DNA from: Hyphomicrobiales bacterium
Lineage (GTDB): Bacteria > Pseudomonadota > Alphaproteobacteria > SPJN01
Length of the DNA: 64,000 bases
Direction: 5' to 3'
Assembly (NCBI GenBank): GCA_006844605.1
Contig: SPJN01000001.1
Location: 74,024 to 138,023, forward strand
Below, in pieces: positions 28,020 through 44,437 of this stretch (positions within the stretch are counted from its first letter, which is position 1; each line of letters opens with the position of its first letter). The position numbers and the translations under genes are program-made. The notes beneath the pieces are model-generated. The model made no database searches. It had not been told where the DNA came from and saw nothing but the letters and a program-made list of their open reading frames with translations.

Positions 28020-31000
28020 TCCTATCTGACGTTTCTGTAAAGCGGCCTGTCTTCGCCGCTGTCTTAAGCCTGTTGATGGTGACATTCGGCACCATTTCGT
28101 TTGAGCGTCTTTCGTTGCGCGAATATCCTGATATTGACCCGCCCGTTGTGACGATTGATACGCGTTATCCCGGCGCGTCAGCTGAAATTGTAGATAACCG
28201 CATCACCGAAACGATTGAGGATCGGGTGTCAGGCATCAGCGGTGTGCGCTTCATCTCCTCGCAATCAAGTCCGGGCCGTTCACGCGTCACGATTGAGTTT
28301 GAGTTGGGCCGCGATGTTTCCGATGCGGCCAATGATATTCGTGATCGTGTCGGCGGTTTGCTCGACAACTTGCCCGATCAGGCCGAACCGCCAGAAGTTG
28401 AGAAAGCTGATGGCGATGATTCTGTCATGATGTGGATTCATCTGGTCAGTGACCGTCATGATCTGATGGACCTGACAGACTACGCGGAACGCCATTTGGT
28501 TGACCGGTTTTCCGCTATCAGCGGTGTGGCGCGCGCCCGCGTGTCGGGTGGCAAGGTGCCAGCCATGCGTATTTGGCTTGATAAGGTGGCGATGGCTGCG
28601 CGCGGTATCACCGCGCCGGATATTGAGGCGGCCTTGCTGCGTGAGAATATTGAACTTCCCGCAGGGCGTATTGAAACGCCGGGGCGGTTGATCGGCATGC
28701 GGCTTGAACGATCCTATAAAACGGTTGAAGATTTTCAGGCCCTTGTGATCCGTGAAGGCGCAGACGGGCATCTGGTACAATTGTCTGATGTCGCGCGCAT
28801 TGAACGGGCCCCGCGAGAGGAAAGAACGCTGTTTCGTGGCAATGGCGTGCCCATGGTTGGCATCGGTGTCGTCAGACAAAGCCAGTCAAACGCGTTGGAG
28901 GTTGCCTATAAAGTCCGCGCTGAGGTTGAGCGCCTGCGTAATGGCCTGCCTGAGGCGATGGACCTGAAGTTAAGCTATGACAAAACAATATTTGTCGAAG
29001 GGGCGGTTAAGGAAGTTTACAAAACGCTGGGTATTGCGATCATCTTTGTGATTGGCGTGATCTATCTGTTCTTGGGGTCGGTCCGCGCCATGATTGTGCC
29101 TGCTGTCACGGTGCCGGTGTCTTTGGTGGCAACCTTTACGGTGATTTATGCGCTGGGTTTTTCGATCAATCTGCTGACCTTGCTGGCGCTGGTGCTTGCC
29201 ATTGGTCTTGTGGTTGATGATGCGATTGTGGTGCTGGAAAATATAGTCCGCCGCATGAAGGAGGAGGGCGAGCCACCCTTGCGTGCCGCCTATCTTGGTG
29301 CGCGGCAGGTTGGGTTTGCTGTTGTGGCGACAACGCTTGTGCTTGTGTCGGTCTTTGTGCCGCTTGCCTTTTTGGAAGGTGATGTCGGGCGGCTGTTTAC
29401 TGAATTTGCGCTGACGATGGCAGTTGCGGTTGTCTTCTCGTCCATCACGGCGCTTAGTCTGTCTGCCATGCTGGCGTCGAAATTGTTGAAGCCCAGCAGT
29501 CATTCAACAATGGCATCACGCTTGGTCGATAACAGCTTTTCACGCCTGCAGGGTGCCTATCAGCGTGGCCTTGATACAAGCCTGCGCCATCCGTGGGTCG
29601 TGTTGATTGTCTTTGTCAGCTTGCTTGGTGGCACGGCGGCACTGTTCAACGCCTTGCCGCGTGAGTATGCCCCTGCAGAAGATCGCGGCATATTCTTTAT
29701 GTCGGTTAAGGGGCCTGAAGGGGCGACCTATGACTATATGAAGGCGTATGGGGATGAGATTGAGGAACGGCTGACCCCATTGATTGAGAACGGTGATATA
29801 AGCCGGTTATTGCTGCGCGTGCCGATTAGCTTTGGCAATCCAGAAAGTTTTAACTCCGCCGCTGCCATCGTCGTGCTGAATGATTTTGATAAACGACGTG
29901 ATGCCTTCACCATTATCGAGGATGTAAAGGCGCGGCTGCATGATTTAAGCGGTGTGCGCGTCTTCCCGTCTATGCGGCGTGCCTTTGGTAAGCGATCATC
30001 AAGCCCGGTGCAGTTTGTAATCGGGGGCGGTTCTTACGAAGAATTGGTCGTGTGGCGTGACATGATGTTGGCCGCTATCGCTGATCGTGACGGGCTTGGC
30101 GTTGTGGATGTGGATTCAGATTTCAAACAAACCCAACCGCAAATTCGGATAGATATAGATAAAACCCGGGCAGGTGATTTGGGTGTGCCTATCGGTGATG
30201 TGGGGGTGACCCTTGAAACCATGTTGTCCGGGCGCATTGCGGGCCGCTTCATAGAAAATGGTGAAGAATATGATGTGGTGATCGAGGGGGAGCGGGCGCA
30301 ACGTCAATCCCCCGCAGATGTCACCGATATTCATGTGCGGTCGCGGAACGATGGCCTGTTGGTGCCGCTTGATCAATTGATCAGCTTTGAAGAACAGGCA
30401 ACCTCGAACACCTTGCCGCGCTATAATCGGGTGCGAGCCATAACCATCACGGGCGATTTGGCAGAAGGGGTGCCCCTGGGCACCGCGCTGGATAATCTGG
30501 ATGAGTTGGCGCGCGAGATTTTGCCGGAGGCAGCCTCAATCGATTACAAGGGGGAAAGCCGGGATTTGCGTTATGATTCCGGTTCGCTCGACTTCGTATT
30601 GATTTTGGGGATTGTCATCGTCTTTTTGGTGTTGGCGGCACAATTTGAAAGTTTTGTGCATCCACTGGTCATCATGTTGACGGTGCCGCTGGCCATCGGC
30701 GGGGCGTTGTTGGGGATTTGGCTGACGGGCGGATCGCTTAACATTCAGACGCAAATTGGTTTGGTGATGCTGGTGGGGTTGGCGGCCAAAAACGGCATTT
30801 TGATCGTGGAATTCGCCAATCAGCTGCGCGGTCAGGGCCGGGCGTTTGATGACGCCATTCGGGAGGCGAGCCTGCTGCGCTTGCGGCCCATTATCATGAC
30901 CGGGATCACAACGGCTATCGGTGCTGTGCCGTTGATACTGGCCAGCGGGCCGGGATTTGAAATGCGGGCGGCGATTGGCGTGACAATCTTTTTCGGTGTG

Positions 31001-31135
31001 GTGATCGCCACATGCCTGACGATATTTGTGGTGCCTGTTGCCTATAAGATTTTGGCGCGTGGCACAAAAAGCGCCAGTGCCGTTGCCGACCAGCTGGCGG
31101 GGGAGTTGTCAGCCCCACAAGGCGGCGGCGAATGA
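28016..31135 (+). CDS. RND efflux permease (AcrB/HAE1 family)
   Basis: 1039 aa, 12 TM segments with two large periplasmic loops, and a conserved TM4 region (LLALVLAIGLVVDDAIVV). Confidence 0.9.
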   Translation: MILSDVSVKRPVFAAVLSLLMVTFGTISFERLSLREYPDIDPPVVTIDTRYPGASAEIVDNRITETIEDRVSGISGVRFISSQSSPGRSRVTIEFELGRDVSDAANDIRDRVGGLLDNLPDQAEPPEVEKADGDDSVMMWIHLVSDRHDLMDLTDYAERHLVDRFSAISGVARARVSGGKVPAMRIWLDKVAMAARGITAPDIEAALLRENIELPAGRIETPGRLIGMRLERSYKTVEDFQALVIREGADGHLVQLSDVARIERAPREERTLFRGNGVPMVGIGVVRQSQSNALEVAYKVRAEVERLRNGLPEAMDLKLSYDKTIFVEGAVKEVYKTLGIAIIFVIGVIYLFLGSVRAMIVPAVTVPVSLVATFTVIYALGFSINLLTLLALVLAIGLVVDDAIVVLENIVRRMKEEGEPPLRAAYLGARQVGFAVVATTLVLVSVFVPLAFLEGDVGRLFTEFALTMAVAVVFSSITALSLSAMLASKLLKPSSHSTMASRLVDNSFSRLQGAYQRGLDTSLRHPWVVLIVFVSLLGGTAALFNALPREYAPAEDRGIFFMSVKGPEGATYDYMKAYGDEIEERLTPLIENGDISRLLLRVPISFGNPESFNSAAAIVVLNDFDKRRDAFTIIEDVKARLHDLSGVRVFPSMRRAFGKRSSSPVQFVIGGGSYEELVVWRDMMLAAIADRDGLGVVDVDSDFKQTQPQIRIDIDKTRAGDLGVPIGDVGVTLETMLSGRIAGRFIENGEEYDVVIEGERAQRQSPADVTDIHVRSRNDGLLVPLDQLISFEEQATSNTLPRYNRVRAITITGDLAEGVPLGTALDNLDELAREILPEAASIDYKGESRDLRYDSGSLDFVLILGIVIVFLVLAAQFESFVHPLVIMLTVPLAIGGALLGIWLTGGSLNIQTQIGLVMLVGLAAKNGILIVEFANQLRGQGRAFDDAIREASLLRLRPIIMTGITTAIGAVPLILASGPGFEMRAAIGVTIFFGVVIATCLTIFVVPVAYKILARGTKSASAVADQLAGELSAPQGGGE

Positions 31136-32092: not shown

Positions 32093-32183
32093 GGGCAAAC
32101 CATACTGAAATCAGATGATTCTGGGTATGGTTTCGCACGCCCTTTGGTGCCTGGCTTCTGAATTCGCAATTGGTGTGATTTAG

Positions 32184-32212
32184 TTGACAATGTATACTAT
32201 ATGCGTAAATAT
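32184..32212 (+). promoter_or_regulatory. candidate sigma70-type promoter (TTGACA-N16/17-TAAATAT) upstream of the SDR/sulfotransferase operon
   Basis: Seen directly: tagTTGACAatgtatactatatgcgTAAATAT, about 115 nt upstream of the ATG at 32326. Confidence 0.35.
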
Positions 32213-32325
32213 CCTGCCTAGATATTGCGAATAATGACAGTTTTGGGGTCGGAAATTGCCAACCTGCCGTGTGGGGTGGGGTGGTGATGGCCCAACAGGG
32301 TGGCAACAGGGCAGGGAATAATACA

Positions 32326-33093
32326 ATGACAAACGGACGTTTGGCCGGACGGGTTGGGCTTGTCACCGGTGCGGGGCAAGGTGTTGGTGCCGGTATTGCC
32401 AAGGCGCTGGTCGCCGACGGCGCTTCTGTGATGTTGGCTGGGCGCACCCTGTCAAAGGTTGAGGATCAGGCGGAGGCATTGGCCCGCGCAGGCGGCACGG
32501 TCACCGCCATGGCATGCGACGTCACTGATCGTGACGCATTGATTGCCGCTGTTGATACGACCGCCGGGCATTTCGGTAAGCTGGATATTTTGGTGAACAA
32601 TGCGCAGCAGGTGCCGCTTGGCCCCCTTCATAAACTTGATGACGATGCGGTTGAGGCAGGTTGGCAGTCAGGTCCAATGGCGGTTCTGCGGGCTATGCGT
32701 GCGGCATTACCCCATATGAAGGCAGCAGGCGGCGGGGCCATTGTTAATTTGGGATCATCGTCTGCATTTCGGTGGGATAATGGCGGCTATGGTGCCTATG
32801 GCGCCGTCAAGGAAGCGATCCGCCAACTGACGCGTGCAGCCGCAAGCGAATGGGGACGGTATGATATTCGCGCCAATGTGATCCTGCCGCTTGGCAACTC
32901 CCCCGGCATGGCAATGTGGAGCGAGCATAACCCTGACGAGGCTGCTGCCTTTGTCAAAACTGTGCCATTGGGCCGTGTCGGTGATTGTGAAGACGATATT
33001 GGCCGTGCCGTCGCGTGGCTGTGCAGTGACGAGGCAGGCTATGTCACCGGACAGTCAATCGGCCTTGATGGCGGTCAGGCACGCTTGGTCTAG
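32326..33093 (+). CDS. SDR-family oxidoreductase
   Basis: TGAGQGVGAGIA Rossmann motif and a YxxxK active site (YGAYGAVK). Confidence 0.8.
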   Translation: MTNGRLAGRVGLVTGAGQGVGAGIAKALVADGASVMLAGRTLSKVEDQAEALARAGGTVTAMACDVTDRDALIAAVDTTAGHFGKLDILVNNAQQVPLGPLHKLDDDAVEAGWQSGPMAVLRAMRAALPHMKAAGGGAIVNLGSSSAFRWDNGGYGAYGAVKEAIRQLTRAAASEWGRYDIRANVILPLGNSPGMAMWSEHNPDEAAAFVKTVPLGRVGDCEDDIGRAVAWLCSDEAGYVTGQSIGLDGGQARLV

Positions 33094-33101
33094 GGATAAT
33101 A

Positions 33102-34208
33102 ATGATGAACAAATCAATCGACGAGCAAGTCACCAGCGGCGCGGCATGGGCGCAATTCTGCGATGACCTGAAGGCGGTGGGTGACTTGCTGCTACAACCG
33201 GAAAATCCGCAGGATGCGTTTACGCAAGCCGAAGGGATGCGGTATCTGTCCCGCCTGACGCGGATGGGGCTTGAAAACTTTTTGGAATATCGCGACCCGC
33301 TGTTCCCGGTGTTTCGTCGTTCCTGTCATGAAACGATCAAGCTGGGTGGTGATAACCCGGACAATCATTATGCCAATGCGCAGATTGACGGATCGTTTGA
33401 CTACAAGATCACAGGGTCGCGCGGGTCTGTTCACTATTTGGGGATCGGAACCCAATCCGGCAATTACGGCAAGGACGGGACGTTGCAAACCATCGGCTTT
33501 ATCGATGCCGATAAGGATATTGCGATTAATGATGATGGCAGTTTTGAAATCATCGTGTCGCAAACAGAACAGCCGGGCAATTGGCTGAAGATGACAGACG
33601 GTACGGGCATGGTGCTGGTGCGCCAAACCTTTCATGATCGCGAAACAGAAACCCCTGCTGTGCTGACGATTGAACGGCTAAATGCAGAGGGTGAGGCCCC
33701 TGCACCCCTGTCGTCGCAACGTATCGCGCATGGGTTGATGGCGGCCAGCCGCTACGTGGCAGGCTCCGTCAAGTTGTTCTTGGAATGGAGCCATGAGTTC
33801 CGCACCTATGACCTCAACACGTTCAAAATGCTGGATCATAAACGCGCCCAGCGTGTCGGGGGCGATCCCAATATACGCTATTTTTATGGGTGGTATGATT
33901 TCGCAGATGATGAGGCATTGGTGATCACCACACCGCTGCCTGAATGTGATTACTGGAATATCCAATTGTGCAATTTTTGGATGGAAAGTTTTGATTATCG
34001 CTATCACCGGGTTCATCTGAACCACCACCTTGCGCAAAATGACGGCAAGACGGCTGAGGTTGTGGTGGCGCACAGGCAGCTGGATCACCCCAACGCCATC
34101 GAAACGGCAGGCCATAAGGAAGGCGTGTTGATGTGGCGCTGGATCGGCGCATCTGATCACCCTGTCCCGCAAGTGCGCAAGGTGAAGATAAGCGAGATTG
34201 CAGGATGA
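33102..34208 (+). CDS. conserved hypothetical protein, translationally coupled to sulfotransferase
   Basis: A 368-aa soluble protein with no recognisable catalytic motif by eye. Its stop overlaps the next start (ATGA at 34205-34208). Confidence 0.55.
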   Translation: MMNKSIDEQVTSGAAWAQFCDDLKAVGDLLLQPENPQDAFTQAEGMRYLSRLTRMGLENFLEYRDPLFPVFRRSCHETIKLGGDNPDNHYANAQIDGSFDYKITGSRGSVHYLGIGTQSGNYGKDGTLQTIGFIDADKDIAINDDGSFEIIVSQTEQPGNWLKMTDGTGMVLVRQTFHDRETETPAVLTIERLNAEGEAPAPLSSQRIAHGLMAASRYVAGSVKLFLEWSHEFRTYDLNTFKMLDHKRAQRVGGDPNIRYFYGWYDFADDEALVITTPLPECDYWNIQLCNFWMESFDYRYHRVHLNHHLAQNDGKTAEVVVAHRQLDHPNAIETAGHKEGVLMWRWIGASDHPVPQVRKVKISEIAG

Positions 34209-35383
34209 GCCGCATTCCCCTGGAACGTGATGCCCTGATGGCGGCGGCGGTGCAATCTGCCGGGCTGGACGATTTCGGCGATTTGTTTTTTATAGAGCCG
34301 TTGGATGTTTTGTTAAGCGCCCTCACAACCGAAGCTGATCTGAACGATGCGGCCCTGAAAGTGCGGCCCATGCAGTTGGTCAACAGTTTGGTCAATCGCC
34401 TGCGGACAGAGGATTACATCAAACGCCATCCGGAAATTTTGGATGAAGAAATTTTGGTCGATGCGGTAATTGTTGGTTTGCCGCGCACAGGCAGCACAAT
34501 GCTGCATCGCCTGTTGGCAGCTGATCCGGGCAATACCGCGATGCAGATGTGGGAAGGGGGGCAACCTGCGCCTTGGCCTGAAGAGGACTTGGGTACAGCA
34601 AAAGAGCTGGGGAATCCCATCGGCCGCCAGAAAATGGGCGAGAAGACCGCCGCCTATATTAATCAATCCAGCCCCGGCTTTGGTTCGATCCATGATGTGA
34701 ATGCCTATAGTCCAGAAGAAGAAATCCTGCTGCTGGAACATTGTTTCATGAGCTCAGTCCCTGAATCCGGTTTCTATATCCCCAGCTATACGGATTATCT
34801 AAAGGGCGCTGATCATTCGCGCGCCTATCAGGATTTGAAACGCTTTCTGCAATTCTTGCAATGGCAGCGCCCCGAACGGCGTGGCAAAAAATGGGTGCTG
34901 AAAACACCGCAGCATGTCCCGTTGGTTGATGTTGTGCTGAAGACGTTTCCCGGGGCCAAGATTGTCATGACCCATCGTGATCCGGTTGAAACCGTGCCCA
35001 GCTTTTGTTCGATGGTCGCGCATTATGCAGGGCCGTGGACCAATCACCTTGATGAAAAGGCGATCGGCAAATTGTGGGCCGATCGCTTGGCGTGGAACCT
35101 TGACCAGTTTATGCAGCAGCGTGATGCGCTGGGTGAGGCGCACTTTATCGATACTGACTACCGCAAGACCATCACTGATCCGCTTGGGGTGGCGCGTGAT
35201 CTGTACGCGCAGTTGGGCCGCACCGTCACCGCATCGGGTGCGGCGCAGATGAAAGAACATGCAGCGGCCAACAAGAAAAACAAACATGGCAAGCATCACT
35301 ATACCGCAGCGCAATTCGGGTTAAGTGACAGTGGCATTGCAGACCAGTTCGCTGCCTATCGTGGCCGATATATCAAAGGGTAA
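34205..35383 (+). CDS. PAPS-dependent sulfotransferase family protein
   Basis: 5'-PSB loop LPRTGSTMLHRLL and a downstream 3'-PB-like region. About 390 aa and cytoplasmic. Confidence 0.7.
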   Translation: MSRIPLERDALMAAAVQSAGLDDFGDLFFIEPLDVLLSALTTEADLNDAALKVRPMQLVNSLVNRLRTEDYIKRHPEILDEEILVDAVIVGLPRTGSTMLHRLLAADPGNTAMQMWEGGQPAPWPEEDLGTAKELGNPIGRQKMGEKTAAYINQSSPGFGSIHDVNAYSPEEEILLLEHCFMSSVPESGFYIPSYTDYLKGADHSRAYQDLKRFLQFLQWQRPERRGKKWVLKTPQHVPLVDVVLKTFPGAKIVMTHRDPVETVPSFCSMVAHYAGPWTNHLDEKAIGKLWADRLAWNLDQFMQQRDALGEAHFIDTDYRKTITDPLGVARDLYAQLGRTVTASGAAQMKEHAAANKKNKHGKHHYTAAQFGLSDSGIADQFAAYRGRYIKG

Positions 35384-35389
35384 TCACAA

Positions 35390-36172
35390 ATGTTGTTGAA
35401 AGATAAAGTTGTTCTGATCACAGGAATTGGCCCGGGCATGGGCCAGCACCTTGCCCGCATCGCTGCCGAAGAAGGCGCGAAAATCGCCATTTGCGCCCGC
35501 AACAAGGAACGGCTTGACGGTTATGCAGTTGATATCGCAAAGGCGGGCGGTGACGTGATTGCCATCCCGACAGATATTGCGGATGAAGGACAGGTTAGCC
35601 ATTTTGTGGACACCGCAGCACAGCATTATGGCCGTGTCGATGGGCTGGTGAACAGCGCCTATAAGCATGTGGGGTTTAAGCCGTTTGAGGATGCCGATCT
35701 GGATGTGTGGCGGGCCAGTATGGAAACCAATTTCTTTGGCACATTGTCTGTCACGCAGAAAGCGGTGCCCCATATGAAGGCGGCAGGCGGCGGGGCAATT
35801 GTGTCGGTCAACACAATGGCGAACCGGAAACCCATGGCGGGCGAGGGCGGCTATGCCAGTGCCAAGGCGGCAATGGCAGGCGCAACCCGTATGCTGGCCC
35901 AGGAGTTGGGGCAGTATAATATTCGCGTCAACTCAACCTTTATGGGGTGGTTATGGGGTCCTGGCGTGCAGGGATATGTTGCCCACACCGCCAAGGCACA
36001 AGGCGTTGACGAAGCGCAGATCATCAAGGGCATCACCCGCAATATCCCGCTGGGTGTGGTGCCGCCCGATGAAGAATGCGCCAAGACGGTTTTGATGTTC
36101 GTGTCGGACTATACAAAGATGGTCACCGGCGCGTCATTGGATGTGAATGGCGGCGAGTTTATGACGCCCTAA
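35390..36172 (+). CDS. SDR-family oxidoreductase
   Basis: ITGIGPGMGQHLA glycine motif and YASAKAAM (YxxxK). Confidence 0.85.
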   Translation: MLLKDKVVLITGIGPGMGQHLARIAAEEGAKIAICARNKERLDGYAVDIAKAGGDVIAIPTDIADEGQVSHFVDTAAQHYGRVDGLVNSAYKHVGFKPFEDADLDVWRASMETNFFGTLSVTQKAVPHMKAAGGGAIVSVNTMANRKPMAGEGGYASAKAAMAGATRMLAQELGQYNIRVNSTFMGWLWGPGVQGYVAHTAKAQGVDEAQIIKGITRNIPLGVVPPDEECAKTVLMFVSDYTKMVTGASLDVNGGEFMTP

Positions 36173-36197
36173 TTTTGGGTCGTGCAGGAGTTGAGCA

Positions 36198-36683
36198 ATG
36201 GCATTGGATCTTGAAGCAATTGAGCTGATTAAGCAGCTAAAGCACCGCTACTTTCGGTGTCTTGATATGGCCGACCATAATGAATTGGCCACAACATTGA
36301 CCGATGATGTGACGATTGATTATCAGGGCGGATCGTATCGTGCCCAATATGATAATCGTAGCGACTTTCTTGAATTTTTGGCTATGGCCTTTCATTCGCA
36401 GGCTGTGGCCCAGCATACCGCCCACCATCCTGAAATTGAGGTTGCTGCCGATGGCAAGACCGCGACGGGCAAATGGTATTTGCATGATATTTTCTGGGAT
36501 TTGAAATACCGCGTGAAAACATCAGGCGTTGCGCTTTACCAAGACAAATATGTCAAAACGGACGATGGCTGGAAAATCGCCCATTCAGGCTATACGCGGG
36601 TGTATGAGTTGGTTGAGAAGATTGAGGAAGACCCGCCCTTTACCGCCCGTCATTTGCAATCGGTGGGGCGGGTGCTGGATTAG
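36198..36683 (+). CDS. NTF2-like (SnoaL/ketosteroid-isomerase-like fold) protein
   Basis: 161 aa. The LIKQLKHRYFRCLDMAD N-terminus is typical of SnoaL-like/NTF2 family proteins. Confidence 0.55.
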   Translation: MALDLEAIELIKQLKHRYFRCLDMADHNELATTLTDDVTIDYQGGSYRAQYDNRSDFLEFLAMAFHSQAVAQHTAHHPEIEVAADGKTATGKWYLHDIFWDLKYRVKTSGVALYQDKYVKTDDGWKIAHSGYTRVYELVEKIEEDPPFTARHLQSVGRVLD

Positions 36684-37138
36684 TCTTTATCTTTGAAGGG
36701 TGTTTTGAAGGCACCTTTCAGGATTTTCCAGACGCCGCTGGCATTGGCAACGACGTTGCCATCGGCCAATAATTCACCTTGCACAAAAACCATCGACCCG
36801 CCGCGCGATACCTTGGTGGCAACCGCCTCCAGCACCATGCCTTCGGTAATCGCGCCAATGAAATTGGTAGTGAGCGAGACTGTGACCGCAGGCTGGTCAC
36901 CAATAAAGTGCCAGGCAGCAGCGCCCAAAGCCTCGTCCGCTATGGTCATGGTCAATCCACCATGAACGCGTGCGCCTGAATTAAGGTGACGCTCTTCGAT
37001 CTTCAGGCCAAACCAATGTTGCTGTGCGCCATCTGGCCCGTCTGTTATTTTGTGCCAAAACGGTCCGGCAATATCGCCGAAGGGGTCGTAATAATCGCCC
37101 TGTGCATAACCATCTGGCATAGTTGGTTGGTCGGTCAT
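36680..37138 (-). CDS. PaaI/YbgC-type hotdog-fold thioesterase
   Basis: 152 aa with HGGLTMTIADEALGAA, the hotdog-fold catalytic region. Confidence 0.7.
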   Translation of the reverse strand: MTDQPTMPDGYAQGDYYDPFGDIAGPFWHKITDGPDGAQQHWFGLKIEERHLNSGARVHGGLTMTIADEALGAAAWHFIGDQPAVTVSLTTNFIGAITEGMVLEAVATKVSRGGSMVFVQGELLADGNVVANASGVWKILKGAFKTPFKDKD

Positions 37139-37884
37139 GACTTGTGGGCCTCCGCAGCGATGTTCAGGAAGCTTGGCGGCTCCCCGCCCCCATGAACTTC
37201 AAGCGATGCGCCGCTGATATAGCTGGCCTGATCCGATGTCAGGAACAGGCAGGCCTGCGCGATATCTTCCGGTGTCGCCATACGCTTCATGGGCAGGGCC
37301 GCTTCAATTTTTCGGATACCCTCGTCGCCCGCGTAATGGTCATGGGCCGCTGGGGTCTTGATCAGGCCAGCAATGATGGCGTTGACGCGCACCTTGGGGG
37401 CCCACTCCATCCCCAATGATTGCGTCAGGTTCAGCAGGCCCGCCTTGGCCGCGCCATAGGCTGCGGTCCCGGGGCTGGGGCGCATGCCAGATACGCTGGC
37501 AATATTCACGATCGCGCCACCATCGGTCATGTGTTGATGGGCAGCCTGTGCCAAGTTCAACGGCGCAATCAGGTTCAGCTTGATAATGCTTTCAGAAAAC
37601 CGGGGGGATGCTGTGGCAGCATCCGCCGGGGGACTGCCCCCTGCATTGTTGATCAGAATGTCAAACCGGCCATCCTTCGTGGCAATGTCAGCGATCAATG
37701 TTGCCACCTGTTCCGGGTCGCGAATATCGGCGCTGATGAACTGTGCGGCGCTTTCATTGTCGGGGTTGTTGCGCCCGCAAGTCCAAACCGATGCGCCCGC
37801 AGCAAGATAGGCGTCAGCGATTGCCCTGCCCACGCCGCGCGTGCCGCCGGTGACCAGCACCGTTTTGCCGTTAAAGCCTGTCAT
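37135..37884 (-). CDS. SDR-family oxidoreductase
   Basis: VTGGTRGVGRAIA glycine motif and YGAAKAGL (YxxxK). Overlaps the thioesterase gene by 4 nt, so the two are probably an operon. Confidence 0.85.
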   Translation of the reverse strand: MTGFNGKTVLVTGGTRGVGRAIADAYLAAGASVWTCGRNNPDNESAAQFISADIRDPEQVATLIADIATKDGRFDILINNAGGSPPADAATASPRFSESIIKLNLIAPLNLAQAAHQHMTDGGAIVNIASVSGMRPSPGTAAYGAAKAGLLNLTQSLGMEWAPKVRVNAIIAGLIKTPAAHDHYAGDEGIRKIEAALPMKRMATPEDIAQACLFLTSDQASYISGASLEVHGGGEPPSFLNIAAEAHKS

Positions 37885-38030
37885 GACGTGCCTTCTTTTC
37901 CTGATTCATCTTGCAATTCTACGCAAACCACATAGAATATCGAGCAATAATTTGCCAAATGCGTAAAAAACTATCGTAATTATAACGCATATGGATGGTT
38001 TGGCCTGATTCTTCAGGCAGGGAGGAATAT

Positions 38031-39614
38031 GTGACCGAAACCGGGAAACCTGCGGGTCCGGCGCTTTTGCGCAAGACCATGCCGCAAATGTTGCGGCAGG
38101 CGGCGGCAACTTGGCCTGATCATATCGCAATTTTGGAAGATGGTGAAAGCCTGACCTATCAGGACTTGCTTGCGCAGGCGTCTGAGGTGGCTGCCGGCTT
38201 TGTCAGCGCGGGGCTGGATAAGGGTGACAGGTTTGCAATCTGGGCACCCAATTGCCGTGAATGGATTGTGACCGCGTTGGGTGGTTTGATGGCCGGGTGT
38301 GTGCTTATCCCGATCAATACGCGTTTCAAGGGGAGCGAGGCTGCCGATATTCTGGGCCGTGGCGGGGTGAAGGCCCTGTTCACGGTGAAGGGTTTTTTGG
38401 GGGCCGACTATCCCGCCATGTTGGATGGGTATGACCTGCCCACACTTGATTTAACGGTGCTGTTGCGCGGCGACAACGGGGCCAGTTGGGCCGGCTTTAT
38501 TGACAGTGTAATCGATGAAGATCGCGTCCGCGCCCATGAGCGTGAGGCCGCGCTGCGCCCAGAAGACGTGGCTGATATCTTGTTCACGTCGGGCACGACA
38601 GGCCAGCCCAAGGGGGCAATGACGGCGCATGGACAAAATGTGGCTGTGTTTGATGAATGGGCCAGTCTGATCAGCCTGCATGATCAGGATCGCTATTTGA
38701 TCGTCAATCCATTCTTTCACAGCTTCGGCTATAAGGCAGGCTGGTTTGCCTGCCTGTTAAAGGGGGCAACAGCCTTGCCCCATGCGGTGTTTGATGTGGA
38801 TCAGATATTGGATCGTATCGCCGCTGACAAGGTTACGGTGTTGCCGGGGCCGCCAACCATTTTCCAAAGCCTGATAAATCACGCCGGGTTGGCGGGGGCC
38901 GATATCAGCAGCCTGCGTGCCACGGTGACGGGCGCGGCGTCCATCCCTGTGCATTTGGTTGAACAGATGAAGCAGGTGCTGGGCTTTGACATTGTGTTAA
39001 CCGCCTACGGCCTGACTGAGGCGACGGGCACTGTCACCATGTGTCGACCCGAAGATGATTTTGAAACCATTGCCAACACGTCTGGCCGCGCCATTCCGTT
39101 TGTGGAGGTGAAATGCGTGGACGGGCAGGGCAATGCCGTGCCCGCGGATGAGGCAGGGGAAGTGCTGATCCGTGGTTATAATGTGATGCAGGGCTATCTT
39201 GATAATCAGGCCGCCACAGATGACGCGATCACAGATGATGGTTGGTTGAGGACCGGTGACATCGGCATTCTGGACGCGCACGGTTATTTGCGTATCACTG
39301 ACCGGGCGAAGGACATGTTCATTACCGGTGGGTTTAATTGTTATCCGGCTGAAATTGAAAACACATTATTGCGGCATGACGCTGTGGCTGACGCTGCGGT
39401 TATCAGCGCGCCTGACGACAGAATGGGTGAAGTTGCCCATGCCTTTATCGTGTTGAAGGCAGGGCAGGTGTTAGAGGCCAATGAGTTGATTGGCTGGGCA
39501 CGTCATGAGATGGCGAATTATAAAGTGCCGCGACTTGTCAGTTTTGTGGACGAGTTGCCGCGCAACGCTTCAGGAAAAGTACAGAAATTCAAATTACGGG
39601 ATTTGGCTGCATGA
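38031..39614 (+). CDS. AMP-dependent acyl-CoA synthetase/ligase (class I adenylate-forming)
   Basis: AMP-binding motifs FTSGTTGQPKG and YGLTE, and TGDIG with a C-terminal GKVQK. GTG at 38031 has a GGAGG 7 nt upstream. The stop overlaps the next start. Confidence 0.8.
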   Translation: MTETGKPAGPALLRKTMPQMLRQAAATWPDHIAILEDGESLTYQDLLAQASEVAAGFVSAGLDKGDRFAIWAPNCREWIVTALGGLMAGCVLIPINTRFKGSEAADILGRGGVKALFTVKGFLGADYPAMLDGYDLPTLDLTVLLRGDNGASWAGFIDSVIDEDRVRAHEREAALRPEDVADILFTSGTTGQPKGAMTAHGQNVAVFDEWASLISLHDQDRYLIVNPFFHSFGYKAGWFACLLKGATALPHAVFDVDQILDRIAADKVTVLPGPPTIFQSLINHAGLAGADISSLRATVTGAASIPVHLVEQMKQVLGFDIVLTAYGLTEATGTVTMCRPEDDFETIANTSGRAIPFVEVKCVDGQGNAVPADEAGEVLIRGYNVMQGYLDNQAATDDAITDDGWLRTGDIGILDAHGYLRITDRAKDMFITGGFNCYPAEIENTLLRHDAVADAAVISAPDDRMGEVAHAFIVLKAGQVLEANELIGWARHEMANYKVPRLVSFVDELPRNASGKVQKFKLRDLAA

Positions 39615-41410
39615 CAATATCACGCGAAGAAACGCAGGAAAAAATCAACCGCCAGATTTTTGGCGCGAGCAAGAACAAGCCCAGTCAAGCACATTGTGTG
39701 GCTGATCGTTATGAACAATGGGCAACCGAACGGCCCGATGTGCCCGCCGTACTTTATCAGGACCGGGTGTTAAGTTACGCGGACCTTGACGCGGCTGCCA
39801 ATCAGTTGGCTGTTGTGCTGCATAACAAGGGTGTGGAACGCGGTGATGTGGTGGCGTTCGGTATGGAGAACCGCCCAGAGTTTTATGTTGGGGTTTTGGC
39901 GCTGGCCAAATTGGGTGCTGTTGGGTCCCTGATCAATATTCAGCAGGTTGGCGATCGGCTGGTTTATTCGGTTGAAAAAGTAACGCCAAAACTTGTTCTG
40001 TTTGGCTCTGAATGTATTGCAAGTTTACAGGCCGCGTGGCCAACACCGACCGCGCCCGTATTGGTCTGGCAGGACCCTGAATCGCCACAAGATGCGGGCA
40101 GCTATGCCGAGGATATTACCGATGTTATCGCCGCAGCCGACCCGGGGGGCTATGACAAGTCATGGCGTGATGGATTGGTGGCGGGTGACATGTTCGTCTA
40201 TGTCTTCACGTCAGGCACGACAGGCTTCCCCAAGGCGGCAAAGCTGTCCCATGTGCGTTGGTTGAATACCGGCGATGGGATGAGCGCGCTTTTGGAATTT
40301 CGTCCAGATGACGTGTTCTATTGCACCTTGCCGCTTTACCATTCGGCGGGGCTGATGTCGTTAACGTCGATGTGTTTGGCGGTGGGCGGCACGATGGCGA
40401 TGCGGCGCAAATTCTCTGTCTCGCAATTCTGGGACGATATCCGCAAACATAACGTAACCGTGACGCAATATATTGGCGAGATGTGCCGTTATCTGATGGC
40501 ACAGCCGGAACAGGCTGATGATGCAGACAATCCGCTGCGCGCCATGATCGGTAGTTCCATCGGGATGGATATCTGGGCCGCGTTTAAGGAACGCTTTGCA
40601 GTTGACCAGATTTTTGAAGGGTGGGGGGCAACAGAAGCCAATACCGGCATGACCAATGTTGACGAAAAAATCGGTGCTGTTGGCCGTGTGCCCTTCAAGG
40701 AGATGAGCAATATTCGCCTCGTCCGTTTTGATGTCGAAGCGGACGATCACATCCGTGATGAAAATGGCTTCTTGATTGAGTGTGAGCCTGATCAGCCCGG
40801 TGAGGTTGTGGCACGTATCTTGGCGCTGCCCGATAGTGCTGCTGGACGGTTCGAAGGCTACACGGATGCGGAGGCGACTGAGGCAAAAATCCTGCGCAAT
40901 GTGTTTGAGGAAGGCGATGCCTATTTCCGTTCAGGTGATTTGATGAAGCGGGATGCGGATGATTATTTCTATTTCCTTGATCGCATCGGCGATACGTTCC
41001 GGTGGAAGTCGGAAAATGTGTCCACGATGGAAGTGGCAGAAGAATTGTCGGGCTTTGACGGTATTGCCTTTTGCAACTGTTATGGTGTGCGTGTGCCGGG
41101 CACCGAAGGGCGCGCGGGTATGGTGGCGCTGGGCCTGAAAGACGGGGCAAGTTTTGATGCTGTGGGCTTCTACAAATTTGCCAAGGAGCGTCTGGCCCAT
41201 TACGCCGTGCCGCTGTTTGTCCGCATTGCCGAGGAATTGGACATGACCTCCACGCTCAAGATGCGCAAAGTGGATTTTCAGCGGCAGGGGTATGACCCTG
41301 CGGCGATGGATGATCCGCTTTATGTGATTGATGATGCGGCAGGGGCTTATGTACCGCTGAATGATCAGGCGCTATCAAATGCAGGCTTGGCACCGTTTGA
41401 CGGGGACTGA
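39611..41410 (+). CDS. FATP/very-long-chain acyl-CoA synthetase-like ligase (bile-acid-CoA-ligase-related subfamily)
   Basis: FVYVFTSGTTGFPKAAKLSHVRW and YRSGDLMKRD are FATP/FadD6-like signatures. 599 aa. Confidence 0.75.
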   Translation: MTISREETQEKINRQIFGASKNKPSQAHCVADRYEQWATERPDVPAVLYQDRVLSYADLDAAANQLAVVLHNKGVERGDVVAFGMENRPEFYVGVLALAKLGAVGSLINIQQVGDRLVYSVEKVTPKLVLFGSECIASLQAAWPTPTAPVLVWQDPESPQDAGSYAEDITDVIAAADPGGYDKSWRDGLVAGDMFVYVFTSGTTGFPKAAKLSHVRWLNTGDGMSALLEFRPDDVFYCTLPLYHSAGLMSLTSMCLAVGGTMAMRRKFSVSQFWDDIRKHNVTVTQYIGEMCRYLMAQPEQADDADNPLRAMIGSSIGMDIWAAFKERFAVDQIFEGWGATEANTGMTNVDEKIGAVGRVPFKEMSNIRLVRFDVEADDHIRDENGFLIECEPDQPGEVVARILALPDSAAGRFEGYTDAEATEAKILRNVFEEGDAYFRSGDLMKRDADDYFYFLDRIGDTFRWKSENVSTMEVAEELSGFDGIAFCNCYGVRVPGTEGRAGMVALGLKDGASFDAVGFYKFAKERLAHYAVPLFVRIAEELDMTSTLKMRKVDFQRQGYDPAAMDDPLYVIDDAAGAYVPLNDQALSNAGLAPFDGD

Positions 41411-41443
41411 CCCTATCTGGCCACAAATGAATTCACACAAAGA

Positions 41444-41476
41444 AAAAGGCCGGTCGCAAGACCGGCCTTTCTAATT
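41444..41476. terminator. bidirectional rho-independent terminator (GGCCGGTC-gcaa-GACCGGCC flanked by A- and T-runs)
   Basis: Seen directly between convergent genes. Confidence 0.65.
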
Positions 41477-41494: not shown

Positions 41495-42826
41495 TTAAAG
41501 ACCCAGACCGATCAGACCCAAAATGGTGTCGGGGCCGAAGCCTGCGCCACCACCGCTGGGTGACAGACCTTTAAGGTTGATCAGCATTGTGGTCGGGTCA
41601 GTGTTGCCACCAACGGCTTCCAGAATGGTGATCTCTGTCAGGCCTGATGCATCGCTAAGCGGTGCCAATAACGGCAGGCCAATTTCCAACAGGGCGTCGG
41701 AACCGGCTGCGCCGGGCTGACCGGAAACCCCAATGGCAACCAGTGATTCCAGATCAGGAATGCCTGAAGGGGCACCTGACGGTGCGCTACCTGCATCAAG
41801 GTTCAGCAATGCTGTGGCAGGATCAGTGTTGCCGTTAATCGCTTCCAGAACAGAAATGTTGACATTCTCGCCACCGTCAAACACCTGCAGGGCAGACGCC
41901 TGTACGATATTGTTCTTGGAACCACCAGCGGGGTCGTTACCAATCACAACATCGGCAAGTGAGCTTTGGTTGGCTGCAGATGCCGGATCACTTGAAAGAC
42001 CGGTCAGGCCCTGACCAACAGCAACCGCAATAACGGAACCATTGTCGCCAGAGGCACCACCGAAGCTCAAGCTACCATTTTGATCTGATGTGGCGTCGTC
42101 AGCTGCTGAGCTGGCCAAATCACCATCAAGGCCGTCTGCTGAACCATCATCATTAACGTCATCGCTGGCAATTGCATCGCCTGATGCGCTGGGATCGTCC
42201 AAGCTATCGTCACCGTCGCCGTCACCGGCTGCTGCAACATCGTCGCCTGAATCAGCGCCGTCTGTTGTGTCGTCACTGGCATCACCGAACAGATCATCGC
42301 CTGCATCGGTGTCGGTGCCGCCTGTTGTGTCGTCAGCGAACAGATCGTCGAACTCATCTGCGTCGTCAGCTTCTGCTGCCTCATCGGCGGCATCACCGGC
42401 GTCGGCCATGTCGTCGGCAACGTCATCATCGGCTGCATCTTCTGCAACCTGATCATCACCCGCGGCGTCATCACCGGTTTCGGCTGTTTCTTCTTCGTCA
42501 CCGAAAAGGTCTTCATCATCGGCGAACAAGTCTTCTTCTTCGTCTGATTCTTCAGCGAACAAGTCTTCTTCTTCGTCGGCACTTTCATCGTCGGTCATGA
42601 AGTCGGCGAAAAGATCATCTTCATCTTCCGCATCTTCGGTTTTACATTCGTCAGGAATATCCTGTTCCAGAAAACCAAGTGCTGCGGCGTCTTTATATTC
42701 GGCGCACTTGTCTTCTTGTGCTGCCATATCTTCCTGCGCGTCAACGAAGGAAGGGGCACCAATTGACAAGATGCCTGCGAATGCGATGGCGCTGATGCCA
42801 CCCAAAAGTTTGTGACGGATAGACAT
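41495..42826 (-). CDS. secreted polyacidic repeat protein (hypothetical)
   Basis: Signal peptide, about 250 aa of D/E-rich low complexity with repeated (E/D)DLF(A/G)D units, then a C-terminal Gly/Ser-rich region with two ~25-aa repeats (LEA(I/V)NGNTDP.T.L.NL). Confidence 0.6.
   Translation of the reverse strand: MSIRHKLLGGISAIAFAGILSIGAPSFVDAQEDMAAQEDKCAEYKDAAALGFLEQDIPDECKTEDAEDEDDLFADFMTDDESADEEEDLFAEESDEEEDLFADDEDLFGDEEETAETGDDAAGDDQVAEDAADDDVADDMADAGDAADEAAEADDADEFDDLFADDTTGGTDTDAGDDLFGDASDDTTDGADSGDDVAAAGDGDGDDSLDDPSASGDAIASDDVNDDGSADGLDGDLASSAADDATSDQNGSLSFGGASGDNGSVIAVAVGQGLTGLSSDPASAANQSSLADVVIGNDPAGGSKNNIVQASALQVFDGGENVNISVLEAINGNTDPATALLNLDAGSAPSGAPSGIPDLESLVAIGVSGQPGAAGSDALLEIGLPLLAPLSDASGLTEITILEAVGGNTDPTTMLINLKGLSPSGGGAGFGPDTILGLIGLGL
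42490..42600. repeat. intragenic 33-bp tandem repeats (GCGAACAAGTCTTCTTCTTCGTC at 42522 and 42555) encoding EEEDLFA units
   Basis: A 23-bp perfect direct repeat with 33-bp period, seen directly. Confidence 0.6.
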
Positions 42827-43054
42827 GATAACTCCACTTAATACGCGTAAACCCGCTGAGTGAGACGGATATTAAACCATTCTACTAATTGTGCTAGCCC
42901 CCAAAGCTACTGAATCGGCGTTATAGGCAATGTGGCGTTGCAAACATGTCCCATATTGGTCGGGATTACTAACAGACCGTTAATTCGGCCTTGATTTGCA
43001 GCGCCGGGTGCTATTCATTGTGCGTGAGGATGATTGTTTCAGAAGGAAATTCCT

Positions 43055-44437
43055 ATGCGTATTGCGTCTAAAGCGTCCTTTTCTAGGAAATTGATGGCTT
43101 CGACCGCACTGGTTGGTGCGTTAACCATTGGCATCATTGGGGGTGCCACGACTGCTCAAGCTGACGAAATGATGTCAGCGCAGGAGCGTGCTTCGCTTGA
43201 AGCGTCGCTAGAGCAGCAGCGTCTTGCCGCCCTTGCACAGCCCAGCAACATGCAAATTCAATTTGAACGTGCAATGACAGCCAAAAAATTGGGATACACG
43301 GATGAAGCGATCCGCGTTCTGTCAATGATGGTTGATCAGCAGCCCGGCCTTGCCCGTGCAGAGCTGGAATTGGCTGCTTTATACTACCAGTCAGGTGATT
43401 ACGAAAAAGCTAAGCCCCATTTTGAGGCTGCCGCCGCATCACCTAAAGCATCTGTTGAGCTTAAAGAGCGTATCGCTGTTTATCTTGAATCAATCGACAA
43501 CAAGCTGCGCCGGTCATTGACCACAGGCACATTGGTTGTCGGTGTGGGCTTCCAGACCAACGCCAATGGCGGTTCTGACGATTTCGCCAATACGGCCAAT
43601 ATCTCAGAAGTGGCTGAAGCTGACGACTTTAATCTGTTCGCGTCATTGGGCGTCAATCACAATCGTAAGGTTGGCGAATCAGACCGTACGGTTTGGGAAA
43701 ACAGCGGGAACCTGTATGGCTCCTTGCAGCTTGACGTTGATGAATTGAATCTGATGTATGCTGAAGTGTCATCAGGCCTGAAATTCGGTCTTGCTAATGA
43801 CAATCCCATGTCATTGAACATCAAGCCCTATGTGAAGCTTGGCTACCTGTTCCTTGAAGACACAACCTACCTGACGTCACCGTCAGCAGGTGCAGTCATG
43901 AACATGCAGCTTGGCGACAATATGGTTCTGGGCGTTGGTTACGACTTTACGCTTGAGATGTACAATAACAGCGACACGCGTACACGCGCCGAAGATCGTG
44001 ATGGCGATGACCATATGCTGACAGTCAGCCTGGGTATTGCTGCAACACAGCAGGATGTTTTGTCCTTCCAGCTGGATGCGGGCAAGAAATCAGCAGACAG
44101 GGATGAATGGTCATTTGATTCATTGGGCCTGTCAGCACGTTACTCACATAGCTTCGCTGAAGCCATCGTGCCGGGCACACTTGCCGGTACGTTAAGCCTT
44201 GGCGCGTCATATTACATGTCTGAATATGATGCCGCTGACCAAAATCTTACCGCAGTGGGTCTGGGCACGATTGTTCGTGAAGATGATCGTTTCGTTGTTG
44301 ACGCCGGTGCCGTGTTGCCGCTGTCAGACACAATGGGCATTTCAGTGGGCGCAAGCTACACCATGCAGGACTCAAACGTGTCCTTGTATGAATATGACAA
44401 TCTGCGTGTCTTGGCCGGGGTTGCATTCGCACTCTAA
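43055..44437 (+). CDS. outer-membrane protein with N-terminal TPR-like helical domain and C-terminal beta-barrel (DUF560/Slam-like, putative)
   Basis: Signal peptide, a helical TPR-like segment (AELELAALYYQSGDYEKAKPHFEAA), then about 300 aa of alternating amphipathic beta-strand pattern ending ...LAGVAFAL. An AGAAGGA RBS precedes the ATG at 43055. Confidence 0.5.
   Translation: MRIASKASFSRKLMASTALVGALTIGIIGGATTAQADEMMSAQERASLEASLEQQRLAALAQPSNMQIQFERAMTAKKLGYTDEAIRVLSMMVDQQPGLARAELELAALYYQSGDYEKAKPHFEAAAASPKASVELKERIAVYLESIDNKLRRSLTTGTLVVGVGFQTNANGGSDDFANTANISEVAEADDFNLFASLGVNHNRKVGESDRTVWENSGNLYGSLQLDVDELNLMYAEVSSGLKFGLANDNPMSLNIKPYVKLGYLFLEDTTYLTSPSAGAVMNMQLGDNMVLGVGYDFTLEMYNNSDTRTRAEDRDGDDHMLTVSLGIAATQQDVLSFQLDAGKKSADRDEWSFDSLGLSARYSHSFAEAIVPGTLAGTLSLGASYYMSEYDAADQNLTAVGLGTIVREDDRFVVDAGAVLPLSDTMGISVGASYTMQDSNVSLYEYDNLRVLAGVAFAL

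Follow-up and report, generated by a model that had tools for sequence, protein, structure and literature searches.

A conserved gene pair for a predicted Stf1-type sulfotransferase and a DUF1214/DUF1254-fold protein, embedded in a nine-gene module that may serve the transformation of steroid-type acids

The window analysed here, a whole stretch of 64 kb of DNA from a Hyphomicrobiales bacterium, contains a module of nine tightly packed genes (g1-g9, positions 32326-41410 in the list of open reading frames (ORFs)) that includes a sulfotransferase gene. Gene families were assigned with Pfam and NCBIfam. On the plus strand, g1 (32326-33093, 255 amino acids (aa)) encodes a classical short-chain dehydrogenase/reductase (SDR) oxidoreductase (adh_short_C2, 1.6e-49), g2 (33102-34208, 368 aa) a cytoplasmic protein with the DUF1214/DUF1254 fold, g3 (34205-35383, 392 aa) a predicted Stf1-type sulfotransferase dependent on 3'-phosphoadenosine-5'-phosphosulfate (PAPS), g4 (35390-36172, 260 aa) a second SDR oxidoreductase (PRK07890, 300 bits with a cutoff of 258) and g5 (36198-36683) a SnoaL_4/NTF2 protein that is BaiE-like (SnoaL_4, 1.1e-26, 93.8 bits). 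Two genes follow on the minus strand: g6 (36680-37138, 152 aa), encoding a hotdog-fold 4HBT/PaaI-like acyl-coenzyme A (CoA) thioesterase (4HBT, 5.4e-14), and g7 (37135-37884, 249 aa), encoding the third SDR oxidoreductase (PRK07856 equivalog, 377 bits with a cutoff of 255). The plus strand then carries g8 (38031-39614, 527 aa), for a FadD3-family acyl-CoA ligase (NF005801 equivalog, 708.8 bits with a cutoff of 657), and g9 (39611-41410, 599 aa), for a very-long-chain acyl-CoA synthetase of the FATP/FadD6 type (PRK08279, 698.5 bits with a cutoff of 625). The nine genes, with their three SDRs, thioesterase and two ligases, lie where a preliminary description of this DNA had placed them, and the ORFs agree with the depositors' gene calls (JBDNBA010000024.1, of the alphaproteobacterial metagenome-assembled genome (MAG) GCA_039768095.1), including the starts at 32326 (g1) and 38031 (g8). 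A longer ORF is possible for g1 from a GTG at 32269, and the GTG start of g8 is preceded by a GGGAGG ribosome-binding site.

Start and stop codons overlap as ATGA at three places, at 34205-34208 (g2/g3), 39611-39614 (g8/g9) and, on the minus strand, 37135-37138 (g7/g6); the first two overlaps had been pointed out before. The convergent genes g5 (plus strand) and g6 (minus strand) share 4 nt of their stop codons (36680-36683) with no terminator between them, so that transcription from the two sides must end either in collision or in read-through. No transporter or regulator gene was found inside the module, and a homology search of the 64 kb found no gene for PAPS synthesis, no cysQ and no sulfatase gene, in line with the earlier remark that the module itself holds no gene of the first three kinds.

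The g3 product scores 122.4 bits with Sulfotransfer_3 (4.3e-35, cutoff 27) and belongs to a very large family (more than 6000 matches). A search of the PDB with its sequence matched just two solved structures, STF1 of Mycobacterium tuberculosis (2ZQ5, E 2.3e-54) and STF9 (2Z6V), and the predicted g3 model (built with 20 homologs, predicted local distance difference test (pLDDT) 91) superimposes on them with template-modelling (TM) scores of 0.83-0.89 and 0.87, respectively. The 5'-phosphosulfate loop reads G-L-P-R94-T-G-S-T98, with R94, T95, G96 and T98 invariant among the 20 homologs and in register with STF1. Like Stf1, g3 has an Arg as the basic residue of this loop, versus Lys in the cytosolic SULTs. 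The 3'-phosphate motif (Arg, seven residues, Ser) is present as T256-H257-R258-D259-P260 followed by S266 and is invariant too, its Arg and Ser aligning in STF1, and further invariant residues are H163, E172 and K233. With the cofactor motifs invariant and aligned in STF1, g3 looks PAPS-competent from its sequence, as the preliminary description had assumed, and the loss of PAPS-binding residues that it had named as a reason for giving up this assignment was not observed.

The score of g3 with STF1 is 188 bits (approximately 30-37% identity) and that of a sulfotransferase of Tsukamurella 574 bits, which marks the Tsukamurella protein as an ortholog of STF1. By these scores g3 is a member of the same family as Rv3529c/Stf1, in a different subclade, and not its ortholog. 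In the literature we found one Stf1-like enzyme with in vitro data, ErSULT of Eubacterium ramulus, for which the acceptors are lipid hydroxyls, namely those of 3- and 16-hydroxyhexadecanoate (PMC13449962). The fold neighbours of the g3 model also include the sulfotransferase domains of CurM and OLS, retinol dehydratase and LGS1, none of which was retrieved by the sequence search with g3. On plasmid p1 of Planktothrix agardhii (L094 2638-10170) we observed a type I polyketide synthase that ends in a full-length Stf1-type sulfotransferase domain, approximately 31% identical to g3 over residues 6-389, indicating that the Stf1-type family is also employed in assembly lines. A second, longer sulfotransferase (418-423 aa) was seen near homologs of the g2-g3 pair in Steroidobacter, in Halioglobus and on a metagenome contig (L004 11710-16559; L087 15964-18461; L096 6257-7528). 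In Steroidobacter and Halioglobus it is accompanied by a short protein with the metallo-beta-lactamase (MBL) fold and an alkylsulfatase dimerisation domain (408-425 aa), and the two may form a sulfation/desulfation cycle.

The partner gene g2 had been described as encoding an unknown protein. This can now be narrowed down to a fold, with a marginal match to DUF1254 (23.9 bits with a cutoff of 22.2, covering 68 of the 133 profile positions), a match to DUF1214 that lies N-terminal of it and stays below the cutoff (22.2 bits, cutoff 25) and a solved homolog, 6ANS of Burkholderia cenocepacia (E 1e-103); g2 shares its fold with the solved DUF1214/DUF1254 members. The characterisation as a protein of unknown function stands in so far as 6ANS and the Vibrio DUF1254/DUF1214 proteins VPA0106 and VPA0735 are structural-genomics entries with no function assigned. 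Members of the g2 family are 50-65% identical between phyla, and 87 positions are invariant in 15 diverse members, among them the polar residues H76, D84-N85-P86-D87-N88, R174-Q175-T176, D255, E295, D298, R300, H324 and H338. The family motifs are DNPDN, RQTF-x-D, GDP, W-x-ES-x-D-x-R and several His. A literature search retrieved no paper containing both DUF1214 and sulfotransferase. Hsh3, the 7-beta-dehydratase of Sphingobium Chol11, was considered as a member of the g2 family and ruled out, being an EthD-domain protein. Genes of this EthD family, to which the 7-beta-hydroxysteroid dehydratase belongs (PMC12175502), were seen near the unit in two relatives (L088 8570-9160 and L090 1573-2196).

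Homologs of g2 are widespread. A scan for the family with one genome per species gave at least 600 matches, and gene neighbourhoods were taken from the best 80 loci. The g2-g3 pair is present in at least 600 species genomes. A sulfotransferase gene is adjacent to and co-oriented with the g2 homolog in 67 of the best 80 loci, and the estimated gap is no longer than 150 nt in 59; ten loci are without a sulfotransferase gene, at least four of them being contigs shorter than 6 kb. The loci with the pair span Halieaceae and other Gammaproteobacteria, Alphaproteobacteria, Actinomycetota (Gordonia, Acidimicrobiia), Gemmatimonadota, Acidobacteriota and Myxococcota, and also include Longimicrobiales and Thermoanaerobaculia; many of the carriers are marine Halieaceae, Gemmatimonadota and Acidobacteriota. 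An SDR gene of about 330 aa lies directly 3' of the pair in 22 of 62 loci, and no other neighbour is frequent. In Steroidobacter the partner gene, an SDR gene and the sulfotransferase gene stand beside cysD-cysNC-cysQ, and in Tsukamurella genes for a hypothetical protein, an SDR and the sulfotransferase stand beside cysD and a gene annotated as cysC (taken as cysNC).

All nine genes are found in the same order only in loci of two close relatives (L003 and L098), at 55-71% protein identity and with flanks unlike those of the window; both blocks are flanked by genes for acyl-CoA dehydrogenases and CoA-transferases, and the two loci, sharing their flanks, may represent a single lineage. The order g1-g5 recurs in two more (L088 and L097). 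The co-conservation foreseen in the preliminary description was thus found for the nine genes and for g1-g5 in a few relatives, and it is the g2-g3 pair, in many cases together with an SDR, that is widely conserved as a unit, not the nine-gene block. The recurring synteny, including that with the PAPS genes, points to a functional core of g2 and g3, with or without the SDR, that draws on PAPS. Because of the 4-nt overlap, the adjacency in most of the loci, the frequent SDR and the PAPS genes nearby, we conclude from the gene organisation that g2-g3 is a functional unit.

Two further observations concern the distribution of the pair. Among the best 120 matches listed, the g2-family copies of Gordonia (L007, L013, L086) are closest (approximately 65% identity) to proteins of Salinisphaeraceae, Enhygromyxa, Chloroflexi and Binatia, and not to those of other actinobacteria. 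The Gordonia copy was probably acquired horizontally, to judge by these matches. Since the Gordonia copy is approximately 65% identical to non-actinobacterial proteins and the copy of Tsukamurella 30% identical to g2, the g2 family comprises at least two subfamilies. Eight loci with the pair come from MAGs with the isolate names SB06xx_bin, APA_bin, RHO1_bin and Candidatus Palauibacter (L015, L018, L026, L037, L069, L073, L074, L084), some of which, to go by these names, may be marine-sponge symbionts. Sterols and their sulfates are abundant in sponges.

A connection to steroid catabolism emerges from the actinobacteria. The operon of Tsukamurella has the order partner gene, SDR gene, sulfotransferase gene, and its first gene is a homolog of g2 (WP_068741472.1, 30% identity over 332 aa, E 3e-42). 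STF1 is Rv3529c (PMC8882603), and a KstR operator is located upstream of Rv3531c (PMC1995591). A review lists Rv3529c as conserved hypothetical, Rv3530c as oxidoreductase and Rv3531c as hypothetical, and marks Rv3531c as a gene that growth on cholesterol is predicted to require (PMC6429209). Rv3530c and Rv3531c are reported to be among the upregulated kstR-regulated genes of cholesterol catabolism (bioRxiv 2025.10.17.683041). Like the module, Rv3531c-Rv3529c combines a hypothetical protein, an SDR-type oxidoreductase and a sulfotransferase in a steroid-catabolic setting, and by this composition, and by way of Tsukamurella, the g2-g3 pair probably corresponds to Rv3531c-Rv3529c. The order differs (SDR, partner, sulfotransferase, SDR in the module versus partner, SDR, sulfotransferase in the mycobacterial type), and the module adds a BaiE-like dehydratase, a thioesterase and two ligases and is without a KstR operator. 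As a gene set the pair is not new, since actinobacteria possess an orthologous operon, and each enzyme taken singly comes from a known family; what is uncharacterised is the conserved combination of an Stf1-type sulfotransferase and a DUF1214-fold protein in catabolic contexts of the steroid type.

A second connection is provided by the steroid cluster on pNL2 of Novosphingobium aromaticivorans, in which seven of the nine module genes have homologs at 38-56% identity: g1 (SARO_RS19455, 42%), g2 (SARO_RS19740 and RS19560, 42% and 38%), g3 (SARO_RS19520, 41%), g4 (SARO_RS19610, 43%), g5 (SARO_RS19600, 42%), g7 (SARO_RS19620, 56%) and g8 (SARO_RS19710, of the FadD3 family, 49% over the full length). 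The g7 homolog SARO_RS19620 heads a run of genes, being located directly upstream of those for a VOC protein, CoA-transferase A/B, enoyl-CoA hydratase and nitronate monooxygenase, which we read as a ring-C/D (ipdAB-type) operon, and the homologs of g4 and g5 form an SDR/NTF2 pair near it. The cluster annotations also include a steroid Delta-isomerase, a FadD3-family ligase, FAD-binding (KstD-like) proteins and cysQ. Homologs of g2 and g3, at approximately 41% identity to the module proteins, are located on sphingomonad megaplasmids. In the pNL2 supercluster the homologs are dispersed over about 60 kb, with the sulfotransferase gene apart from the partner gene, whereas the window holds a compact subset.

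Comparable surroundings were found at other loci. In L097, a gene for KshA (Rieske and KshA_C domains) and a flavin reductase gene are located directly upstream of genes for an SDR, the partner protein, the sulfotransferase, an SDR and a SnoaL_4 protein, with genes for thiolase, MaoC and acyl-CoA dehydrogenase downstream, and in L091 genes for CoA-transferase A/B and a KstD-like protein adjoin the homologous unit. Rhizorhabdus packs together genes for the sulfotransferase, the partner protein, three SnoaL_4 proteins, many SDRs, an old yellow enzyme (OYE), an acyl-CoA dehydrogenase and TonB-dependent receptors.

The remaining genes of the module likewise point towards the catabolism of steroids or bile acids. 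The only PDB matches of g5 are BaiE entries (4L8P, 2.7e-26), and in an alignment with 4L8P and 4LEH the residues Tyr30, Asp35 and His83 of BaiE, for which catalytic roles have been described (PMC11110704), are aligned with identical residues in g5. BaiE, Hsh2 and SteC are hydroxysteroid dehydratases with an NTF2 fold, and it is BaiE that g5 resembles, the catalytic Tyr, Asp and His being kept; the match amounts to 96 bits (approximately 35-40% identity as judged by eye), and the position of the hydroxyl and the need for a CoA ester are not readable from the sequence. The BaiE-like SteC of Comamonas acts on derivatives of methylhexahydroindanedione propanoate (HIP), from which it removes the 12-beta-hydroxyl (PMC13101464), a substrate type that matches the FadD3-type ligase beside SDRs in the module. 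No homolog of the ring-C/D genes of pNL2 (CoA-transferase A/B, enoyl-CoA hydratase, nitronate monooxygenase) was found near g8 or elsewhere in the 64 kb; the 49% identical g8 homolog of pNL2, on the other hand, does lie in the company of such genes. The signature of FATP-type ligases that had been noticed in one of the two ligases is that of g9, which matches the FATP2 entry 9vzp (E 7e-124) as well as PRK08279; with the FadD6 model it scores 424 bits, below the cutoff of 975. The PaaI model score of g6 is below its cutoff, and syntenic copies of g6 occur in L003 (57% identity) and L098. The SDR encoded by g1 is 62-66% identical to the product of the syntenic gene in L003 and L088, and that encoded by g4 70-71% in the same two loci and 47% to the Steroidobacter SDR encoded between the partner and sulfotransferase genes.

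Taken together, we consider with about even confidence that the module is an accessory kit for the catabolism or transformation of a steroid- or bile-acid-type compound, namely a bulky alicyclic carboxylic acid that carries hydroxyl groups. Candidate substrates suggested by the gene content are bile acids or propanoate-bearing breakdown products of rings C/D (HIP-like acids). The acid would be activated to its CoA thioester by g8, g9 or both, the SDRs g1, g4 and g7 would interconvert ring hydroxyl and keto groups, and the BaiE-like g5 would remove a hydroxyl conjugated to a keto group. A remaining hydroxyl would then be O-sulfated by g3 with PAPS from the housekeeping CysDNC, working with the translationally coupled g2, which would either handle the hydrophobic acceptor or process the sulfate ester, and CoA would be released by the PaaI-like thioesterase g6; both the substrate class and the order of these steps are proposals. 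The preliminary description had left a sulfated lipid and a steroid acid side by side as products of a candidate pathway. The steroid-acid version gains from g5, g8, g9 and the pNL2 homologs, and the biosynthesis of a dedicated sulfated lipid becomes less likely because homologous units are found in catabolic surroundings (TonB-dependent receptors, acyl-CoA dehydrogenases, thiolases, KshA, IpdAB).

Assigning a role to the pair would give a function to a fold with three solved structures and name the substrate of Stf1. A possible gain is a new type of reaction in steroid catabolism, or a route by which bacteria make sulfated steroids. The compact module yields a ready set of candidate substrates, because its sulfotransferase is accompanied by a BaiE-like dehydratase and by a ligase of the FadD3 type.

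Nevertheless, several observations weigh against a role in steroid or bile-acid transformation. None of the hallmarks of ring cleavage (KshA, HsaC, IpdAB and KstD) is encoded within the 64-kb window, and within 10 kb of the pair such steroid hallmark genes are rare in the best 80 loci (IpdA in two loci, a KstD-like gene in one), indicating that for most lineages there is no fixed link between the pair and the 9,10-seco pathway; that it is strictly a part of this pathway was rejected for this reason. SDRs, NTF2 proteins and acyl-CoA ligases all belong to promiscuous families, in which 40-56% identity does not fix a substrate. In the literature found on bacterial degradation of steroids and bile acids, including that by sphingomonads, no sulfotransferase or sulfation step is mentioned, and the expenditure of PAPS in a catabolic route is costly. 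The correspondence of g2 to Rv3531c is indirect, Mycobacterium being absent among the best 120 matches of a search seeded with the Gordonia partner protein. Finally, a motif search of the window found a single site for the KstR operator TNNAACNNGTTNNA, at 28886 and thus outside the module; the KstR2 operator CAAGNNCTTG has no site in the window. Because the window is without ring-cleavage genes, the hallmarks are rare and a link in the literature is lacking, the class of the acceptor is deduced from the genomic context.

In a more specific version of the steroid-type reading, which we consider unlikely, an SDR would make a secondary alcohol, g3 would sulfate it and g2 would eliminate or displace the sulfate, so that the hydroxyl is removed, inverted or rearranged. 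The target would be a hydroxyl with no neighbouring carbonyl, and therefore one that a BaiE-type dehydratase cannot remove. This version makes sense of several features of the unit: the trio of SDR, partner and sulfotransferase recurs across phyla in every gene order, the many polar residues among the invariant positions of g2 and its identity across phyla are as expected for an active site of an enzyme, and a stable sulfate ester has no obvious purpose in catabolic clusters. Genes for PAPS supply and for removal of 3'-phosphoadenosine 5'-phosphate (PAP) adjoin the unit (in Steroidobacter and Tsukamurella, with cysQ in the pNL2 cluster), and a second sulfotransferase gene recurs nearby, as do short alkylsulfatase-like genes of the MBL fold. 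Some fold neighbours of g3 also provide a precedent for the use of sulfate as a leaving group, namely the sulfotransferase-thioesterase domains of CurM and OLS, retinol dehydratase and LGS1. The likeness of g3 to CurM and retinol dehydratase is, however, at the general level of the sulfotransferase fold (TM approximately 0.3-0.36), and in CurM, OLS, retinol dehydratase and LGS1 the follow-up chemistry falls to a thioesterase or to the sulfotransferase itself, with no DUF1214-fold protein carrying it out. Moreover, no member of the DUF1214/DUF1254 fold has a known catalytic activity, and in sphingomonads the partner gene is often found beside an SDR gene with the sulfotransferase gene 6-45 kb away. 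Of the two mycobacterial genes only Rv3531c, and not Rv3529c, is flagged as predicted to be needed on cholesterol (PMC6429209), which suggests that the partner may act without sulfation.

Stated generally, the idea would be that an SDR, an Stf1-type sulfotransferase and a DUF1214-fold protein form a hitherto unrecognised three-enzyme device that removes or inverts unactivated hydroxyls on steroid-like rings: a ketone would be reduced to the alcohol, the alcohol sulfated with PAPS and the sulfate eliminated or displaced by the DUF1214-fold protein, which would be the first enzyme of its fold. We regard such a device as distinctly unlikely. If true, it would provide a function for Rv3529c-Rv3531c of M. 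tuberculosis, as well as for orphan pairs of genes that marine and soil bacteria possess in their thousands.

It is improbable, in our judgement, that the module serves detoxification and export, in which toxic, membrane-active steroid or bile-salt intermediates would be sulfated, solubilised and pumped out, with g2 as a lipid-binding carrier. Animals sulfate such compounds for detoxification and export (SULT2A1), and exporters are indeed found nearby: an operon for resistance-nodulation-division (RND) efflux is located directly upstream of the module in the window, genes for an exporter with HlyD, major facilitator superfamily (MFS) and outer-membrane-factor components adjoin the g2 homolog in S. 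herbicidovorans, and MFS transporter genes are present near the pNL2 homologs. L003, L098 and L088 nevertheless show no linkage of the RND operon with the module, no transporter is conserved beside the pair in the best 80 loci, and export does not account for a cytoplasmic protein that is so highly conserved and so strictly paired.

The version closest to the sulfated lipid of the preliminary description, an endogenous sulfated membrane or signalling lipid made from a very-long-chain hydroxy fatty acid or an isoprenoid acid, is highly improbable. Enzymes of the Stf type do build cell lipids (Stf3 of M. tuberculosis reportedly sulfates omega-hydroxy-dihydromenaquinone, giving sulfated menaquinone), and the FATP2-like g9, the in vitro activity of the Stf1-like ErSULT on the two hydroxyhexadecanoates and the Planktothrix polyketide synthase that ends in this type of sulfotransferase point in the same direction. 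ErSULT and Stf3 are both Stf-type PAPS sulfotransferases that act on lipid hydroxyls, but a DUF1214-fold partner is reported for neither and their contexts are not catabolic. The module has no gene for an acyltransferase, a glycosyltransferase, a flippase or another lipid-assembly protein, its BaiE-like dehydratase, FadD3-type ligase and thioesterase are catabolic in character, and the catabolic surroundings of the homologous units listed above speak against lipid synthesis as well.

A reading in which the g1-g5 operon, g6-g7 and g8-g9 are unrelated neighbours and do not form a single functional unit, as the wide conservation of just g2 and g3 (alone or with an SDR) and the synteny of g6-g9 in L003 and L098 only could suggest, is hardly credible, given that the nine-gene order is kept in these two loci while the flanks differ from those of the window, that the exact 9-mer ATGCGTAAA occurs in both promoter regions and nowhere else in the 64 kb, and that the homologs of g4, g5, g7 and g8 cluster together in pNL2.

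As to transcription signals, the promoter proposed upstream of g1 is present in part. The candidate (32184-32212, plus strand) has a TTGACA at 32184, as described, and a weak -10 element (TAAATA/AAATAT) that fits the consensus at just 3 of 6 positions; it was not called in a promoter scan of the region, in which promoter-like matches are at chance level (12 observed and 8.7 expected). The candidate includes the first of the two copies of ATGCGTAAA, at 32201-32209. The second copy, at 37959-37967, is located in the divergent intergenic region between g7 and g8 and falls within an imperfect inverted repeat that is a candidate operator (37955-37969 and 37980-37994, with 15-nt arms that are 80% complementary). 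The two copies may constitute a shared operator for a regulator encoded outside the module. In L003, the g1 homolog is also preceded by a TTACGCA, at a distance of 18 nt.

The module ends at a bidirectional hairpin resembling an intrinsic terminator (41443-41472, with a 13-pair stem, 7 G-C pairs and T-runs on both strands), in agreement with the terminator described before. The composition of the module (GC content 0.546) is close to that of the window (0.552), and GC content at third codon positions (GC3) is similar; a recent horizontal transfer of the module was rejected, as composition gives no signal. The accessory appearance that had been attributed to the module finds no support in its composition and agrees with the different flanks of the block in its relatives. 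In the window the module is flanked by housekeeping genes (encoding the RND pump (26970-31135) and including mdh, sucCDAB, lpd and xerC). Right after the terminator we observed an ORF of 443 aa on the minus strand (41495-42826) with no Pfam match, which corresponds to the polyacidic protein locus of the preliminary description, and beyond it a tetratricopeptide repeat (TPR) protein is encoded at 43034-44437.

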